In this document: one piece after another, positions 698 to 31,435 of the stretch | Layout: the number at the start of each line of letters is the position of its first letter | Position numbering within the stretch: the stretch's first letter is position 1 | NCBI GenBank assembly: GCA_964612545.1 | Contig: CAZTBU010000007.1 | Location: 248-64,247, forward strand | Origin: an uncultured Clostridia bacterium | Lineage (GTDB): Bacteria; Bacillota; Clostridia; Christensenellales; Borkfalkiaceae | Reading direction: 5' to 3' | DNA: 64,000 bases | Made by a program: the position numbers and the translations under genes | The notes under the pieces: model-generated | Databases searched by the model: none | What the model was told of the DNA's origin: nothing | What the model saw: only the letters and a program-made list of their open reading frames with translations

Positions 698-3600
698 ATG
701 AAAAGAAAATGGCTAATCGGACTGCTTGCTCTGCTGATGGCGATTGCAACGTGCTTCGGCATCGTTGCCTGCGGCGGCGGCGAAGAACAGGCGAGCGACG
801 AGGAAATTGCAAACAAAGCAATTACTCTTCTGAAGTCACTATACGGAGATGGCGAAACCAAGGCCTCTTATAAGGTTCTCGGCCAAACCAAAGTCGACGA
901 CAATGTATACGATGTGACGTGGACGGTATCCTCCGAGACGGAGAATATCGAAGACTACGTCAAGATCGGCACGATGGACGAATCGAAGCAGATCACGATC
1001 GACATTTCTTGGGGCGAGAACGCAATCGAGTACACGCTTACCGCGTCCGTGACGGTCGGCAGTGTCACCAAAACTTTGGACATAAAGCATACGATTCCCG
1101 CACTCGGCACCGTTTATACGCCCTCGCAGGTTCTCGAACTCGGCGCCAAACTCACTCATGCGGAAGGCTCCGAAGAAACCTATTATATGGAGAACGGCGA
1201 AGTAGCGCCTCTTACGGTAAAAGGCTATGTCGTTTATATAGATGATTCGGAGAAGGGCGGTTGGAATTCGGAATACAAGAATCTCAACAGAATCTACATC
1301 GGCGACACGAAGGACACAGCCAAAGAAGAGGCACTCTATGTTTACCGTATTGTCGGCGACGAAGTCTATCTTACCGGCCCCGATTCCATTCAGGTGGGCG
1401 ACCTCGTAACGCTCAACGGCGCGCTCGAGAAATATAAGGATACAATCGAGCTCACCTATTACGAGTCGCTCAGCGTTACCGTACTCGGTATCGAAAAGGC
1501 GGAGCGGACGGACGAAGAGATCCTCGCCGCGGCGCAGAATGCTCTCAAAGTCACTCCCTCTTACTTCAGCCAACCGGGTGAATACTCTCTGCCTGTTCCC
1601 GCAAGCGGCGTCTCTGTCACATGGGAACTCACGGGCGCTGACTCCAATGTGAAAGTCGAAAACGGCAAAATCATCGTATCCGCCATTCCCGATTCCGAAA
1701 CTTCCTATACCCTTAAGGCAACCCTTACTTACGGTAGCGCGGCGGCCGTGACGAAGGAGTTTACCATTAAACTCGGGAAACTTGCCGTGACGCATGCAGG
1801 CACGCAGGAAGATCCTTACACCCCCGCCGAGGCACGCACCATTGCGGCCACTCTTGCAGAAGGGACGTATTACTCCGACGCAAACGGCGTCAAGGCCGTC
1901 TATGTCAAGGGCAAAGTTGTAGATACAGGCTCGTGGAGCGCTGATTTTAATAACTACAATAAAGTTTATATCATTGACGAAAATTCTTACACCACGGACG
2001 CGACGCAGAATTCCGATGACGCGATCCAGATCTACCGTATCGCCAAAACCACAAAGCTCACCGAAGGTTCCCTTCATCACGGCGACACGCTTGTTGTCAA
2101 ATGCGGTATTCAGAATTATTACGGCGAGCCCGAGCTTGGCAGCCCCACGGGTGATAGTAAAGTCAATGCTGCAGATTTCGCGGATTACACTGCCACGGAA
2201 AACCCTGCTCCCGACCCCGACCCTAACCCCGACCCCGACCCTTCGGCCGACTCCGCGACGATCACATTTGACGCGAATAAGACGGGCCGCACGTCTTACT
2301 CCACTGAGGAACAGGTGTGGACGCAAAACGGAATTACTTTCACGAACGGTAAGGGGACTAACACAAACGGCGTTCAGGATTATTCCAACCCCATTCGTTG
2401 TTATAAAAATTCTACCGTCAAAATTGAATTTACTTCCGCCTTCGCAAAGCTTGTGTTCGTTAGCGCGGAGGATTACACCAGCGGTGACAATCCCTCGACG
2501 TATTGCACTTGGTTGAAAGAGAATCTCGAGGCAGTCAGTGGAGTTACCGTAACGGTGAACGGTACGGAAGTCACGGCTGTTTTGGCAACTTCCGCCACGT
2601 CATTTGAATTTACCGCTTCGCAAGGACAAGTACGTTTCTACTCGATCACCGTGTACAAAACAAACGATGGTACGGAGACGCCGGGGGAGCCCCAAACCGA
2701 CGAAGAGAAGATAAAGGCCGCACTCGACTCGTTGAACGATATGGATATTACCACAACGGGGACGACGAATCTCGAAACTTCTTACAACGACGGCGAAGTA
2801 ACCTTCTCTTGGGCAACAGATACCCAATTGTCCGGAGGAATCTTGTTTGAGAACAACGTCATCACCGTCACCGCACTTCCCGAAGCCGATGTCGCGATTG
2901 TATTCACCGTCACGGCTACCCTGGGGGGGGGCGAGACGGCAGCGGTTGAGTTGCAGTCCAATCAAAAGACGGTCACGATCACCGTGAAGTCGGCGTCCAC
3001 CGCAGAGCCCGGCGGTGACACGGCATTCACTGCCATCACCGAGCCTCAGGCAGGAACGGAATACTATATGGGCATGAAGATAGGAGATAATGCATATCAC
3101 TATGTTAATGGTACCTTCACTGATAACGGATTTTACCTGAACACGACGACGGACATTGCAACCGCGAAGAAAGCGTCCCTTACCGCGAGCGGTGACGGTT
3201 GGGTCATCATGATCGACGGAAAATATCTCGAACTTGAGGAAACGACAGGTTCGGATGGTACCGGCAACTTCGCAAATCCTAAGCTTAAAGATTCGCAGAC
3301 AGAAGGCAAAGTATGGACTTGGGATGAGCAATATAAAATCTTCACTTGGGGTGACGCGAAATGGTTCCTCGGTACGAGAAATGACCAAAAGCATGATACA
3401 ATTGGCGGATGTGCTTATAAATATGTAGCTCAGGACTACCTTGCGGTCATCGGTACGTACGCCGCAGAAAAGACGGACCCGCCTGCTCCCGGCCCCGAGG
3501 GGGGGGGCGAGACGAAAGTTAGCGGTTCGTTTACGATAACGCCGGAGCATTCGGGATTGACTTCCTCTTGGGGGCAAGGCAAATGGACGGATATAAACAG

Positions 3601-4078
3601 TGACCCGGCCGGATATACTCTTAGCGGTGTTGCATACGGTACTGCTGTTACTGCTCAGTCTCCGAGCTACATGCAGTTTAATGGCACCAAACCCGGTTCC
3701 TATTTCATGAACACTGTAGCAACCCCTGCTCCGTTAACGAAGATTGAAGTCAAATGTTCAACAAGCTCAAGTAGCGATTTGTACTTGCATTTGTTAACTT
3801 CCACAAGTGCATACCAGCCAAGTGAGAGCGGTGGGAATCCGTCGGATTCGGGGACTGTACATGAGAAGCAAAAAGTGACCGGCGAAGAAAGTACACTAAC
3901 GTGGGAAATAACAGGCGCCGATACATTTTTTGCATTATATTTTGAGGGAAAGAATGCGAAAGTTTTTTCGATAAAGATTACCTATGGAGACGCCGCGGCC
4001 GAAGCCGCAATGGAAGCGCCTGCCATGACGGCATTCACGTCAAACGCAAACGGCGGCCTATTCCGCAAGAAGGATTGA
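698..4078 (+). CDS. Large surface lipoprotein of unknown function with two OB-fold-like modules
   Basis: 1126-aa ORF with an AAAGGAGAAAAG RBS just upstream of the ATG. Lipoprotein signal MKRKWLIGLLALLMAIATCFGIVAC. Two similar modules (KGYVVYIDD...LYVYRI...VTLNGALEKYKDTIEL and KGKVVDTG...IQIYRI...VVKCGIQNYYGEPEL) resemble OB-fold domains of secreted nucleases/adhesins. PDPDPNPDPDP linker. No catalytic motif recognised. Confidence 0.85.
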   Translation: MKRKWLIGLLALLMAIATCFGIVACGGGEEQASDEEIANKAITLLKSLYGDGETKASYKVLGQTKVDDNVYDVTWTVSSETENIEDYVKIGTMDESKQITIDISWGENAIEYTLTASVTVGSVTKTLDIKHTIPALGTVYTPSQVLELGAKLTHAEGSEETYYMENGEVAPLTVKGYVVYIDDSEKGGWNSEYKNLNRIYIGDTKDTAKEEALYVYRIVGDEVYLTGPDSIQVGDLVTLNGALEKYKDTIELTYYESLSVTVLGIEKAERTDEEILAAAQNALKVTPSYFSQPGEYSLPVPASGVSVTWELTGADSNVKVENGKIIVSAIPDSETSYTLKATLTYGSAAAVTKEFTIKLGKLAVTHAGTQEDPYTPAEARTIAATLAEGTYYSDANGVKAVYVKGKVVDTGSWSADFNNYNKVYIIDENSYTTDATQNSDDAIQIYRIAKTTKLTEGSLHHGDTLVVKCGIQNYYGEPELGSPTGDSKVNAADFADYTATENPAPDPDPNPDPDPSADSATITFDANKTGRTSYSTEEQVWTQNGITFTNGKGTNTNGVQDYSNPIRCYKNSTVKIEFTSAFAKLVFVSAEDYTSGDNPSTYCTWLKENLEAVSGVTVTVNGTEVTAVLATSATSFEFTASQGQVRFYSITVYKTNDGTETPGEPQTDEEKIKAALDSLNDMDITTTGTTNLETSYNDGEVTFSWATDTQLSGGILFENNVITVTALPEADVAIVFTVTATLGGGETAAVELQSNQKTVTITVKSASTAEPGGDTAFTAITEPQAGTEYYMGMKIGDNAYHYVNGTFTDNGFYLNTTTDIATAKKASLTASGDGWVIMIDGKYLELEETTGSDGTGNFANPKLKDSQTEGKVWTWDEQYKIFTWGDAKWFLGTRNDQKHDTIGGCAYKYVAQDYLAVIGTYAAEKTDPPAPGPEGGGETKVSGSFTITPEHSGLTSSWGQGKWTDINSDPAGYTLSGVAYGTAVTAQSPSYMQFNGTKPGSYFMNTVATPAPLTKIEVKCSTSSSSDLYLHLLTSTSAYQPSESGGNPSDSGTVHEKQKVTGEESTLTWEITGADTFFALYFEGKNAKVFSIKITYGDAAAEAAMEAPAMTAFTSNANGGLFRKKD
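2923..2931 (+). repeat. G9 homopolymer tract inside the lipoprotein CDS (candidate slipped-strand site)
   Basis: ctGGGGGGGGGcgagacg encodes LGGGET. The same 16-mer GGGGGGGGGCGAGACG recurs at 3499-3514. Confidence 0.9.
3499..3507 (+). repeat. Second G9 homopolymer tract inside the same CDS
   Basis: gaGGGGGGGGGcgagacg encodes EGGGET. Identical 16-mer to 2923-2938. Confidence 0.9.
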
Positions 4079-4100
4079 CAATTGTTTCTCAGGTTCTGAA

Positions 4101-4132
4101 AAACGGCTACCCTTAACGGGGTAGCCGTTTTT
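4101..4132 (+). terminator. Rho-independent terminator of the 698-4078 gene
   Basis: Stem CGGCTACCC (4104-4112) pairs with GGGTAGCCG (4119-4127), followed by TTTTT (4128-4132). Lies 23 nt after the stop codon. Confidence 0.8.
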
Positions 4133-4140
4133 CGTTCTGA

Positions 4141-5151
4141 TCCGTCACCCTGAGCGTAGCCGAAGGGTCACCACTCGTCACCCTGAGCCTGCCGAAGGGC
4201 CACCATAAAAAAATCGTCACCCTGAGCCTGCCGAAGGGTCACCACTCGTCACCCTGAGCCTGCCGAAGGGTCACCTTATTCTGCGGTGATGGTTCGACTT
4301 CGCTCACCATGACATGATTCGGAACGGCCGAAGGGTCACCTTATTCCAATCCGTCACCCTGCCGTCCCAATCCGTCACCCTGAGCTTGCCGAAGGGTCAC
4401 CGCATTCCAATCCGTCACCCTGCCGTCCCAATCCGTCACCCTGCCCCGCCCGCGCGTTCTTTTGCAGACTAAGGGCGGCACGAGCCCGTAGGGCGAAGTA
4501 GCGTAGCCGAAGGGTCACCATAAAAAAATCGTCACCCTGAGCCTGCCGAAGGGTCACCACATTCTAATCCGTCACCCTGCCGTTCTGATCCGTCACCCTG
4601 CCCCGCCCGCACGTTCTTTCGCGGACTAAGGGCGGCACGAGCCCGTAGGGCGAAGTAGCGTAGCCGAAGGGTCACCACTCGTCACCCTGAGCCTGCCGAA
4701 GGGTCACCATAAAAAAATCGTCACCCTGAGCGTAGCCGAAGGGTCACCTTATTATTCTGCGGTGATGGTTCGACTACGCTCACCATGACGTGATTAGGAA
4801 CGGCCGAAGGGTCACCACTCGTCACCCTGCCGTCCCAATCCGTCACCCTGAGCTTGCCGAAGGGTCACCTTATTCTGCGGTGATGGTTCGACTTCGCTCA
4901 CCATGACGATTCAGAATGGCCGAAGGGTCACCGCTCGTCACCCTGAGCCCGCCGAAGGGTCACCTTATTCTGCGGTGATGGTTCGGCTTCGCTCACCATG
5001 ACGGATAACAATGTGATGGTTCGATTTCGCTCACCATGACGGATAACAATGTGATGGTTCGATTTCGCTCACCATGACGTGATTAGAATGGCGGGAAGGA
5101 CCACCATGACATAAAAAAATGTTGTCATGCTGAGCCTGTCGAAGCATCACC
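4141..5151. repeat. ~1-kb mosaic array of hairpin units, inverted relative to the array at 1-620
   Basis: By my count about 20 complete units plus half-units with almost no unique sequence. GTCACCCTGAGC(CTG/GTA/TTG/CCG)(G)CCGAAGGGTCACC at 4144-4172, 4177-4204, 4216-4243, 4248-4275, 4374-4401, 4531-4558, 4681-4708, 4720-4748, 4842-4869 and 4937-4964. (CTGC)GGTGATGGTTCGACTTCGCTCACCATGAC at 4281-4313, 4757-4789, 4875-4907, 4970-5002, 5013-5040 and 5051-5078. Long-loop units at 4435-4519 and 4592-4676. TGC/GCA variant at 5124-5151. Fixed linkers: ACTC, TTATT, ATAAAAAAATC, CATTCCAATCC. Confidence 0.92.
5111..5151 (-). terminator. Possible intrinsic terminator of the GIY-YIG gene, formed by a repeat unit plus a T7 run
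   Basis: On the minus strand the hairpin unit 5151->5124 (GGTGATGCTTCGACAGGCTCAGCATGAC) is followed by AACATTTTTTTAT. It starts 20 nt after the GIY-YIG stop. The same unit+T7 arrangement (linker ATAAAAAAATC on the + strand) recurs at 4205-4215, 4520-4530 and 4709-4719. Confidence 0.45.
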
Positions 5152-5171
5152 TTATGACAAATGAGCGAATT

Positions 5172-5447
5172 TTAATAAGGCATCAAATCTTCCCATTTAG
5201 GATTTAACGTGGCAATGAGAGCGTCTTTTTTTGAACGTCTCCAACCTTTGAGTTGCTTTTCTCTATGGATTGCGGCCTCGATATCATTCCATTCTTCACA
5301 ATACACAAGCTTATGCAATCCATATCGTTTTGAAAAACCATTAAATTCGCCGCTTCTGTGCTCAGACAAGCGGCGTTGTAAATTGTTTGTAACACCAATG
5401 TAAATCACATTGTTATTTGTATCTGTCAATATGTATACGTAGGCCAT
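5172..5447 (-). CDS. GIY-YIG nuclease family protein (UPF0213 / COG2827-like, 91 aa)
   Basis: MAYVYILTDTNNNVIYIGVTNNLQRRLSEHRSG...KLVYCEEWNDIEAAIHREKQLKGWRRSKK carries the GIY..YIG, R, E and N hallmarks of the family. I chose the internal ATG at 5447 because the 38 upstream codons of the tracked ORF (to 5561) are translated repeat units. The gene is visibly AT-rich compared with its surroundings. Confidence 0.85.
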   Translation of the reverse strand: MAYVYILTDTNNNVIYIGVTNNLQRRLSEHRSGEFNGFSKRYGLHKLVYCEEWNDIEAAIHREKQLKGWRRSKKDALIATLNPKWEDLMPY

Positions 5448-5462
5448 AGGATAATTTGAATG

Positions 5463-5797
5463 CTGCGGTGATGGTTCGACTTCGCTCACCATGACGTGAT
5501 TCGGAACGGCCGAAGGGTCACCGCATTCCAATCTCGTCACCCTGCCGTCCCAATCCGTCACCCTGAGCCCGCCGAAGGGTCACCACATTCCAATCCGTCA
5601 CCCTGCCGTCCCAATCCGTCACCCTGAGCCCGCCGAAGGGTCACCATATTCTGCGGTGATGGTTCGGCTTCGCTCACCATGACGGATAACAATGTGATGG
5701 TTCGGCTTCGCTCACCATGACGAATATTGCGGTGATGGTTCGACTTCGCTCACCATGACGGATAACAATGTGATGGTTCGACTTCGCTCACCATGAC
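5463..5797. repeat. Hairpin-unit array upstream of the GIY-YIG gene, in the same orientation as 4141-5151
   Basis: GGTGATGG-type units at 5463-5495, 5651-5683, 5694-5721, 5729-5759 and 5770-5797. GTCACCCTGAGCCCGCCGAAGGGTCACC at 5557-5584 and 5618-5645. Half-units GTCACCCTGCCGTCCCAATCC lie between them. Confidence 0.9.
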
Positions 5798-5811
5798 GAA
5801 GGAGGCGATTC

Positions 5812-6474
5812 TTATACTTTTGTGTCTCTTCTTGCCAAAATTTCGCCGCTTTCGCTGTCTAATAGAAGTGACAGCGTGTCGCCTTCGGTATCAACAATGC
5901 CGATATAGTAGTAATTTTTATCCCGCCGCAACAACCGTACGTGAAATTCTCCCAAAAACGCCCCGCCGCTTGTCATGCGCCCGATACGGTCTTTCTCCGC
6001 CTCCAAGGCAAAACCGAGCGCGTCGGTATATGAGATGGTCTTATCGTTTTTGACGGATGTTGCCGTGATTTCCCGCGTCTCTTTGTCCCACACAACGCGC
6101 AACGAGACGGTATTTTGGGGGAACGCGTTCACGCTTTCCGAGAAGAACCAGTCCCCGCAGGCGTTACGGAAGGAGACTTCTCCGCCCTGTTCGCCCGTTT
6201 CCGTCTTAAAAAACACGCTGAATGTTTCCGCCTTGACGGCAGGGACGAGGGAGATCTCCACGATGTCGCTCCGCGGGCAGGCAACGCCGTCGGCGGCGTA
6301 AGGGTGCTCGCGGGAAACGCAGGAGAGGGTGACGGAGAATTCGTCGGTTTCGGCCATGAAAATATCCGATCTCAGTTCGGAGATATGCGCGGTGTAGTCG
6401 TATTTTTTCCCGCAAGCGGAAAAGAGCAGGGGGGCGCAGAGGACAAGTAAAACCAAAGATATATGTTTTTTCAT
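5812..6474 (-). CDS. Hypothetical lipoprotein (220 aa)
   Basis: ORF with signal/lipobox MKKHISLVLLVLCAPLLFSAC. The C-terminal YYYIGIVDTEGDTLSLLLDSESGEIL is PepSY-like. No other recognisable motif. Confidence 0.7.
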   Translation of the reverse strand: MKKHISLVLLVLCAPLLFSACGKKYDYTAHISELRSDIFMAETDEFSVTLSCVSREHPYAADGVACPRSDIVEISLVPAVKAETFSVFFKTETGEQGGEVSFRNACGDWFFSESVNAFPQNTVSLRVVWDKETREITATSVKNDKTISYTDALGFALEAEKDRIGRMTSGGAFLGEFHVRLLRRDKNYYYIGIVDTEGDTLSLLLDSESGEILARRDTKV

Positions 6475-6580
6475 GTTTTATCCATATGAAAAAAGGGAAA
6501 ACTTCATGACTTTCCGCGCGCATACGGTTGCAATTTTTTTGTGCTTATGATAGAATAAATGAAAAAGAAACGGAGGCGGC

Positions 6581-31340: not shown

Positions 31341-31435
31341 GGTGACCCTTCGGCTACGCGCTTTGCGCTTCGCTCAGGGTGACAGATCCCGTCATGCTGA
31401 GCCGCCGCACTTTTGCGGCGTGCCGAAGCATCACC
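31341..31435. repeat. Isolated pair of hairpin-repeat units with extended loops, in convergent orientation
   Basis: GGTGA-CCC-TTCGG-[ctacGCGCtttGCGCttc]-GCTCA-GGG-TGAC (31341-31383), then GTCA-TGC-TGAGC-[CGCCGCActtTTGCGGCGtg]-CCGAA-GCA-TCACC (31391-31435). Same scaffold as the arrays at 1-5797. Ends 10 nt before the RBS of the next gene. Confidence 0.85.

Follow-up and report, generated by a model that had tools for sequence, protein, structure and literature searches.

The stretch of DNA that was analysed here, which comprises 64,000 nucleotides (nt) of contig CAZTBU010000007.1 from an uncultured Clostridia-like gut bacterium (hereafter the window), carries a small gene, ssn, and we consider it very probable, judging from the sequence comparisons described below, that this gene is embedded in arrays of its cognate hairpin repeats and that the locus constitutes an Ssn/SRM system. 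The Ssn nucleases and their NTS/SRM repeats were described by Chenal et al. (2025, Nat Commun 16:2388, PMC11893778), and the window is a new example of that published system rather than a new kind of system; what is new here is a hairpin class that lies outside the published pattern, together with an unusually rich mosaic array. An earlier, sequence-only reading of the window had proposed that the GIY-YIG protein encoded by this gene recognises or nicks the hairpin family in a partnership that resembles the one between repetitive extragenic palindromic (REP) sequences and the REP-associated tyrosine transposases (RAYT). This proposal is supported by what was shown for SsnA (PMC11893778) and by our comparative tests, from which the same activity would be expected of the window protein. 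The inverted hairpins that the same reading saw bracketing the gene were confirmed, as hairpin repeats in opposite orientations flank ssn on both sides within 500 base pairs (bp). The gene and its two nearest units are as follows:

5172 to 5447, minus strand: the ssn gene, which encodes a single-domain GIY-YIG nuclease of 91 amino acids (aa) that was assigned to the Ssn family using PF01541, its homologs and a structural model.
5467 to 5495, minus strand: the hairpin unit upstream of the gene, GGTGATGGTTCGACTTCGCTCACCATGAC, a TGG unit with the stem ATGGT/ACCAT, located 20 nt before the ATG.
5124 to 5151, plus strand: the hairpin unit downstream of the gene, GTCATGCTGAGCCTGTCGAAGCATCACC, with the stem ATGCT/AGCAT, located 20 nt past the stop codon.

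SsnA of N. meningitidis is a 94-aa single-domain GIY-YIG protein with a family of its own, cd10448 (GIY-YIG_unchar_3), which binds the NTS hairpin repeat (CGTCATTCCCGCGMAVGCGGGAATCYRG) only as single-stranded DNA and cuts it a few nucleotides upstream of the hairpin (PMC11893778). The enzyme was inactive on double-stranded DNA, RNA and the reverse strand, and RNA was not bound at all. The three nucleotides before the palindrome weighed most in cleavage and the C right after the palindrome weighed most in binding, and cleavage was lost in the Y6A, Y17A and E64A mutants. A palindrome of altered sequence that still formed the hairpin no longer supported activity, and extensions of the loop left cleavage unblocked (PMC11893778). 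Ssn homologs of many bacterial phyla were found to be flanked by related motifs (SRM), and four of the enzymes were assayed in vitro. In Neisseria, the NTS are almost always intergenic, clustered and present in many copies, their clusters surround genes for surface proteins and reduce transformation across them, and cutting at the NTS makes incoming DNA less likely to recombine near the genes that they flank. The authors likened NTS-ssnA-NTS to an insertion sequence and to IS200/IS605, RAYT, REP and bacterial interspersed mosaic elements (BIME), and they raised repeat propagation or mobility by Ssn as a hypothesis (PMC11893778). With this function published, the earlier remark that the subgroup of the window protein has no settled function is out of date.

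The minus-strand open reading frame (ORF) at 5172-5447 translates into MAYVYILTDTNNNVIYIGVTNNLQRRLSEHRSGEFNGFSKRYGLHKLVYCEEWNDIEAAIHREKQLKGWRRSKKDALIATLNPKWEDLMPY (91 aa), residues 1-73 of which match the Pfam model PF01541 (GIY-YIG) with E=1e-17. The Pfam models do not tell the GIY-YIG subfamilies apart for this protein, and no NCBIfam model matched it at its cut-off. AlphaFold2 predicted a confident GIY-YIG fold (pLDDT 92.5), the top matches of which in the Protein Data Bank as retrieved using Foldseek were all GIY-YIG domains (BH0048, HIGLE, Slx1, UvrC and I-TevI), and both Pfam and the model describe one compact GIY-YIG domain with no extra DNA-binding domain. The catalytic set of the GIY-YIG enzymes, i.e., Y5, Y16, R26, H30, E63 and N82, is invariant throughout an alignment of 22 homologs, and the spacing of Y5, Y16 and E63 (11 and 47 residues) is that of Y6, Y17 and E64 in SsnA. 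The window protein matched its own family with E-values of 1e-26 to 1e-43 (109-163 bits), whereas the comparison with UPF0213 gave E=4e-5 (26.9 bits) for 1zg2 and E=0.056 for 1ywl, which makes the UPF0213-type label that the gene was first given imprecise. The UPF0213 proteins (E. coli YhbQ, B. halodurans BH0048 and E. faecalis EF2693; cd10456; SLX1-related) are likewise stand-alone GIY-YIG domains of about 90-100 aa, and 1zg2 is the best structural match of the window model (Foldseek E=6e-5); however, their two tyrosines are spaced by 10 residues and not by 11 as in the window protein. We know of no hairpin repeats that are associated with the UPF0213 genes. The GIY-YIG homing endonucleases such as I-TevI share the catalytic domain and its residues (1ln0 is a weak match of the model, with Foldseek E=0.23, probability 0.89 and TM 0.50), but they have a separate DNA-binding domain, cut double-stranded DNA and are located in introns or phages, whereas the window protein has a single domain and a predicted target that is a repeated hairpin. 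It scored 22.7 bits with TIGR01453, the model of the group I intron endonucleases, the cut-off of which is 56, and the neighbours of ssn in the window are chromosomal lipoprotein genes with no intron or phage context.

An exact look-up of the 91-aa sequence returned no record; the gene caller probably took a longer ORF of 129 aa instead, which begins with GTG at 5561 and is not credible because it is merely a read-through of the repeat units. Some annotated homologs, P0101 among them, have C-terminal tails such as ...GKGPSLRSG that resemble a read-through into the adjoining hairpin unit, which suggests that the stop codons are often placed a few bases from a unit. No second ssn paralog was found in the window using tblastn. 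The family itself is very large: 5988 proteins were matched in one search that was seeded with a homolog, and a relative is encoded in 593 of 600 genome stretches.

The comparison of homologous loci was based on the best 80 genome loci, whose proteins are 49-65% identical to the window protein and which span Clostridia, Bacteroidota, Verrucomicrobiota, Acidobacteriota, Proteobacteria, the candidate phyla radiation and other phyla. In 73 of the 80 loci, a unit of the form GTCA-stem...stem'-[TC]C was found no farther than 250 bp from the gene. The layout seen in the window, in which the upstream unit is on the gene strand and the downstream one on the other strand, is the commonest (40/80), and an upstream unit on the strand of the gene, as at 5467-5495, was present in 43/80. 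The density of the units was 5.9 per kilobase (kb) within 250 bp of the gene as against 0.48 per kb beyond 1 kb, i.e., a 12-fold enrichment. Two homologs that are 53-54% identical to the window protein, one from Thiomicrorhabdus (L069) and one from a planctomycete (L049), have near-canonical NTS flanks (CGTCATTCCCGCGTAGGCGGGAATC and TGTCATTCCCGCGAAAGCGGGAATCC, respectively). Additionally, metagenomes were scanned for loci in which 72-102 nt separate the exact NTS core from the reverse-complemented conserved codons for E-K-x-L-K-x-W, which belong to the 3' part of the gene, and at least 120 loci with the core beside an ssn-like gene were obtained (L090-L209). The 104 ORFs that were recovered from them (median 97 aa) are all matched by the window protein at 42-58% identity with E<=2e-20, and the upstream NTS on the gene strand was found too in 61 of the 88 loci that had enough upstream sequence. 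The contigs on which the exact core (CGTCATTCCCGCG-N4-CGGGAATC) lies by an ssn-like gene, at least 120 in number, came from soil, sludge and freshwater. The NTS hairpin sequence is far from being Neisseria-specific. No Neisseria protein was present among the best 120 of the 5988 matches in the search seeded with the Thiomicrorhabdus homolog or among the matches listed for the window protein.

In the locus of a homolog that is 76% identical to the window protein (L081), the arrays are built with other stems, TTCC and TGCT, and the stop codon is closely followed by a TGCT unit on the other strand, which is positioned and oriented like its counterpart in the window. The large neighbouring proteins of that locus share only domain-level similarity (29-36%) with those of the window. 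The window and the published system have in common a GIY-YIG protein that consists of one domain (about 90-100 aa) and whose catalytic residues and their spacing are the same, oriented hairpins in which CGTCA comes first and a C directly follows the palindrome, the arrangement of repeat, gene and inverted repeat, and many intergenic copies that are clustered by a surface-protein gene. The positions that are critical for SsnA, the 5' CGTCA and the C right after the palindrome, are both present in the window units.

The window units have the form C-GTCA-NNN-TGAGC-loop-CGAA-N'N'N'-TCACC, in which an outer stem of 5 bp, which varies in sequence, leads to an invariant GAG...CGA core with a tip that again varies, the stem not being continuous. 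The pattern GTCA-N3-TGAGC-N3-8-GAA-N3-TCAC was found 29 times in the window and not once in 100 dinucleotide-preserving shuffles; one variant with a CCAC end raises the number of full units to 30, and 28 of these 30 have a C at position -1, before GTCA. Their stem triplets are CCC (14 units), TGG (15) and TGC (1), with the CCC and TGG units on opposite strands in every case. The full units and a number of half-units occupy three intergenic sites in the 64 kb, and none lies inside a coding region. In order to avoid circularity, the units of the wider sample were located using the non-stem anchors alone (GTCA N4 GAGC ... CGA N4 [TC]C), which gave 203 matches in the real sequence and one in the shuffled sequence. 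The N4 stems were perfectly complementary in 192 of the 203 matches, with 13 different stem sequences. Among 28 distinct 26-nt units, 97.4% of the cells were paired compared to 17-51% in the slid controls; four stem pairs vary on both sides (39 cells), and none of 500 shuffles reached the observed score. This covariation indicates that the hairpin structure is under selection. The 26-nt form of the unit includes GCGNAGC, and the GAG...CGA core can be read as two sheared G.A pairs and a G-C pair. Hirao and colleagues reportedly found the GCGNAGC mini-hairpin to be unusually stable in DNA.

Several observations weigh against the assignment to the Ssn/SRM system. The published SRM pattern, HGTCWYN(0-2)YYVSBRHN(0-5)WNVSBRGN(0-2)RNCYNB, has no match on either strand of the window, and it matches 7 of the 80 loci, with none of these matches being a GAGC-type unit. 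Three stem variants (CCC, TGG and TGC) exist alongside one ssn in 64 kb, which counts against the assignment because a changed palindrome abolished the activity of SsnA (PMC11893778). The nearest-neighbour energies of the short units, -2.2 to -4.4 kcal/mol, are no better than those of shuffles. Moreover, the ATG of ssn is not preceded by a recognisable Shine-Dalgarno sequence and a scan of 4000-5900 for sigma-70-like promoters found none, so that the expression of ssn is uncertain.

The weak energies of the short units would follow from a stable GCGNAGC/G.A core, and the TGCT long-stem unit at 31391-31432 reached -13.7 kcal/mol as DNA (z=-3.0). As for the stems, sharing of a stem did not track protein similarity across the loci (0.549 vs 0.544, p=0.26; 0.551 vs 0.540, p=0.06), and several stem types were found within one locus in 19 of 46 sources. 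Since the stems lack this correlation and multi-stem loci are common, the stem triplet probably does not serve as a specificity code, and that idea was dropped as a main claim; recognition via the conserved core and the flanks rather than the outer stem is more likely. The window differs from the published system in that its hairpin combines a 5-bp variable stem with the GAG...CGA core instead of a continuous stem and escapes the published search pattern, in its three stem variants, mosaic arrays and half-units, and in its host, which is not a proteobacterium; furthermore, the published class was assayed, whereas the window class is known from sequence alone. Among the proteins that are flanked by GAGC units, 35 of 44 have five of five nearest relatives that are also GAGC-flanked, and those flanked by continuous hairpins group together as well (112/116). 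This suggests one protein subclade per hairpin class, and no more than suggests it because the two samples were collected differently and sampling bias may contribute.

The remaining repeat features of the window are as follows:

4141 to 5110, unstranded: the left part of the mosaic array, in which the CCC units are plus-strand and the TGG units minus-strand.
5496 to 5797, unstranded: the right part of the mosaic array, with the same modules as the left part.
1 to 620, unstranded: the second array, with TGG units on the plus strand and CCC units on the minus strand, inverted relative to 4141-5797.
4435 to 4516, plus strand: a long unit of 82 nt with a CCC outer stem and a 57-nt loop insertion.
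31342 to 31435, unstranded: an isolated pair between two genes, made up of a minus-strand CCCT unit and a plus-strand TGCT unit.

That the GIY-YIG gene is the only unique sequence in about 1.7 kb of repeats, as was first claimed, was borne out: repeated 11-mers cover about 99% of 4141-5110 and 5467-5797, as against 26% of 5152-5466, with a window background of about 45%. The units also extend past 4141-5797, to 1-620 and 31342-31435. The array at 1-620, which runs off the start of the window, is linked to the one at 4141-5797 by inverted repeats of 86-89 nt at 94-97% identity. Both are BIME-like mosaics in which two unit types alternate in orientation, and their components are pairs of a plus-strand and a minus-strand unit with the spacer TTATTCTGC, these gene-less pairs with a 9-nt spacer filling the arrays, and tandem TGG units with the spacer GGATAACAAT. 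The ssn gene occupies what is otherwise such a short pair spacer (CACC-TTAT...gene...TGCTGC-GGTGA), and hence the gene-bearing module and the gene-less pairs have the same ends. The unit downstream of the gene (5124-5151), on the opposite strand, is the sole TGC unit of the array at 4141-5797. The left array further contains 5' half-units (GTCACCCTGCC), 3' half-units (GGCCGAAGGGTCACC) and recurring spacers. The half-units stand in fixed contexts (4314-4360, 4402-4434, 4559-4591, 5496-5556 and others); the 5' half-unit recurs as 21-nt tandem steps (GTCACCCTGCCGTCCCAATCC), and the 3' half-unit always comes after a minus-strand TGG unit and a spacer of 10-12 nt, e.g., GTGATTCGGAAC. Half-units could be the products of aberrant cleavage and repair. 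Other copies of the 82-nt long unit lie at 4592-4673 on the plus strand and at 76-157 and 347-428 on the minus strand, and the 57-nt insertion, which holds CCGCCC...GGGCGG and a GAGCCC-GNA-GGGCGA sub-hairpin, is conserved in all four and has no match in Rfam. The units of the isolated pair, which is located in the gap that separates a 1144-aa ORF from the following gene, face each other 5' end to 5' end at a distance of 6 nt and have longer inner stems, for example GAGC-CGCCGCA-CTTT-TGCGGCG-TG-CCGA. A literature search with the unit sequences returned only chance primer matches.

The two arrays at 1-620 and 4141-5797, which are mutually inverted, bracket a 1126-aa lipoprotein gene at 698-4078 (signal MKRKWLIGLLALLMAIATCFGIVAC), which parallels the NTS-gene-NTS layout around surface genes in Neisseria. 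Inverted arrays of this kind could enable the inversion of the 3.5-kb segment. The lipoprotein gene is directly followed, ahead of the first unit, by a terminator-like hairpin with a T-run at 4115-4137 (hairpin 4115-4129; AACGGGGTAGCCGTT TTTCG), and since this hairpin precedes the array, the array lies outside that transcript.

The mechanism that we propose for the window protein is predicted via its homology to the SsnA enzymes. When DNA turns single-stranded, e.g., during replication, repair or the uptake of foreign DNA, the units on the exposed strand would fold into hairpins that consist of a 5-bp variable stem, a conserved GAG...CGA core (two G.A mismatches and a G-C pair) and a tip that varies. 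The 91-aa enzyme would bind such a hairpin along with the conserved CGTC on its 5' side and the C on its 3' side and would hydrolyse the hairpin strand a few nucleotides upstream of the unit, and it would be expected to spare the complementary strand, double-stranded DNA and RNA. The unit arrays would then act as orientation-specific break points for single-stranded DNA. In the same scheme, [unit]-gene-[inverted unit] would be an autonomous form that resembles an insertion sequence, with the gene-less pairs as its miniature derivatives. The RAYT/REP/BIME systems are alike in having a small nuclease gene between inverted hairpin repeats, scattered intergenic mosaic clusters and an expected recognition of single-stranded DNA, but they use an HUH enzyme with a covalent tyrosine intermediate and an unrelated fold, as opposed to GIY-YIG hydrolysis in the window, and their units have another consensus. 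The IS200/IS605 elements and the palindrome-associated transposable elements (PATEs) also have end hairpins that are recognised on single-stranded DNA and gene-less miniature copies; however, the window locus has neither TnpA nor TnpB, and transposition has not been demonstrated for Ssn.

A reading that is compatible with the Ssn/SRM explanation and extends it, and which we hold to be a real possibility with the balance leaning against it, is that of an active selfish mobile element, in which Ssn also drives the spread of [unit]-gene-[unit] modules and gene-less pairs, either through homing-like repair of nicked single-stranded DNA or through a switch of template at the replication fork, so that the arrays are its footprints. 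The same hypothesis was put forward by Chenal et al. (PMC11893778), and it is favoured by the terminal-inverted layout, which recurs across phyla in half of the homologous loci, and by the 9-nt-spacer pairs that fill the arrays and whose spacer is exactly what ssn occupies. On the other hand, GIY-YIG nucleases hydrolyse DNA and strand transfer is not known for them, and neither transposition nor homing was demonstrated for any Ssn. Comparison with relatives in which the 220-aa neighbour gene is conserved at 75-79% identity points in both directions: they have no units and no ssn at the equivalent site, the intergenic region of which measures 165 bp in L086 and L087 and 150 bp in L088, but the gene on the far side is not orthologous. 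The site is a synteny break and not a clean empty site for this reason, and the one-sided comparison was rejected as empty-site evidence for mobility. In a contig from another sequencing run (L084), the 220-aa neighbour is 100% identical and different units, with the loop TTGC and the 3' end CCATGAC, enter the array (3663-3741 compared with 5720-5812 of the window). Such a difference would suit a moving element; however, L084 is a short-read contig that ends inside the array, and the difference may be strain variation or an assembly artefact.

Base composition, too, was considered in this context. That the gene is AT-rich, as the sequence-only reading had noted, is real (a GC content of 0.377 compared to 0.57-0.58 in the arrays and 0.549 in the whole window), but it is not special to this copy. 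Of 78 loci, 76 had an ssn gene with a lower GC than its flanks, and the mean difference was 10.6 points (sd 5.5). Low GC being typical of the ssn family, AT-richness was rejected as a mark of recent transfer of the window copy, whose gap of 17 points is somewhat above the family norm. A gene that stays some 10 points under its host across the family would fit a selfish element, yet its GC tracks the host GC with a slope of 0.89 and may reflect the amino-acid composition.

It is unlikely that the window ssn is a poorly expressed or decaying relic, with the arrays persisting on their own or being served by paralogs elsewhere. The missing Shine-Dalgarno sequence, where the L081 homolog has AGGAG, and the failure to find a promoter-like site in 4000-5900 would fit such a relic, as would the fact that the bulk of the array is made of CCC and TGG stems, while the unit it has in common with the locus of the nearest homolog is TGC(T). 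The ORF, however, is intact and every catalytic residue is kept. The mismatch between stem and gene is no evidence of non-cognate units because, as described above, the stem does not track protein similarity across the loci, and several stem types per locus are common.

We consider it very improbable that the units act mainly as RNA, i.e., as terminators, stabilisers of messenger RNA or a small structured RNA, with the nearest unit serving as the terminator of ssn. The covarying stem would suit an RNA as well as a DNA hairpin, and on the coding strand the downstream unit is followed after 4 nt by a T7 run (A7 at 5113-5119), on which the initial claim of a terminator was based. That claim was not supported, as the terminator scan called no unit, and the predicted RNA fold of the ssn 3' region contains no unit hairpin with a U-run but places the U-run in the loop of another hairpin. 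The A7-containing spacer (ATAAAAAAATC) recurs at 4205-4215, 4520-4530 and 4709-4719, which makes it a part of the repeat module and not gene-specific. At 5098-5131, two units that stand 5' end to 5' end form a further inverted repeat, CATGACA...TGTCATG, that encloses the A7, and it is this inverted repeat that dominates the predicted fold. Against a role as RNA there are also the lack of any Rfam match at E<=1 in 3500-6500, the lipoprotein gene's own terminator ahead of the array, the presence of units on both strands of one array and the finding that SsnA does not bind RNA (PMC11893778). Finally, that the units are of the REP type and are handled by a Y1 (HUH) RAYT encoded elsewhere, with the GIY-YIG gene adjacent only incidentally, is hardly credible despite the BIME-like mosaic, in which units of two types alternate in orientation, because chance cannot yield the same scaffold beside GIY-YIG homologs in 73/80 loci of unrelated phyla with a 12-fold enrichment, and the sole gene inside the arrays encodes a GIY-YIG protein and not PF01797, although the whole window was not screened for a RAYT.

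With the locus read as an Ssn/SRM system, the partnership between Ssn and hairpin repeats extends to uncultured gut Clostridia. The G.A-core hairpin class dominates among the closest relatives of the window protein and was missed by the published SRM pattern, and hence the published association figures may be underestimates. This class offers candidate enzyme-target pairs for tools that act on single-stranded DNA. The arrays around a large surface lipoprotein gene, as in Neisseria, hint at a general link between such repeats and variable surface genes, and the mosaic arrays, half-units and strain differences are material for asking whether Ssn propagates its repeats. More tentatively, and with considerable doubt, we suggest that the GAGC...CGA units may be a distinct and very widespread class of Ssn targets, in which the core and the CGTC/C flanks are read and any outer stem is tolerated, and that [unit]-ssn-[inverted unit] may be truly mobile, with gene-less pairs amplifying into BIME-like mosaics. 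If this were true, it would be a GIY-YIG-driven counterpart of REP/RAYT, and the inverted arrays could set the boundaries of recombination and inversion around the genes for variable surface proteins in gut Clostridia.

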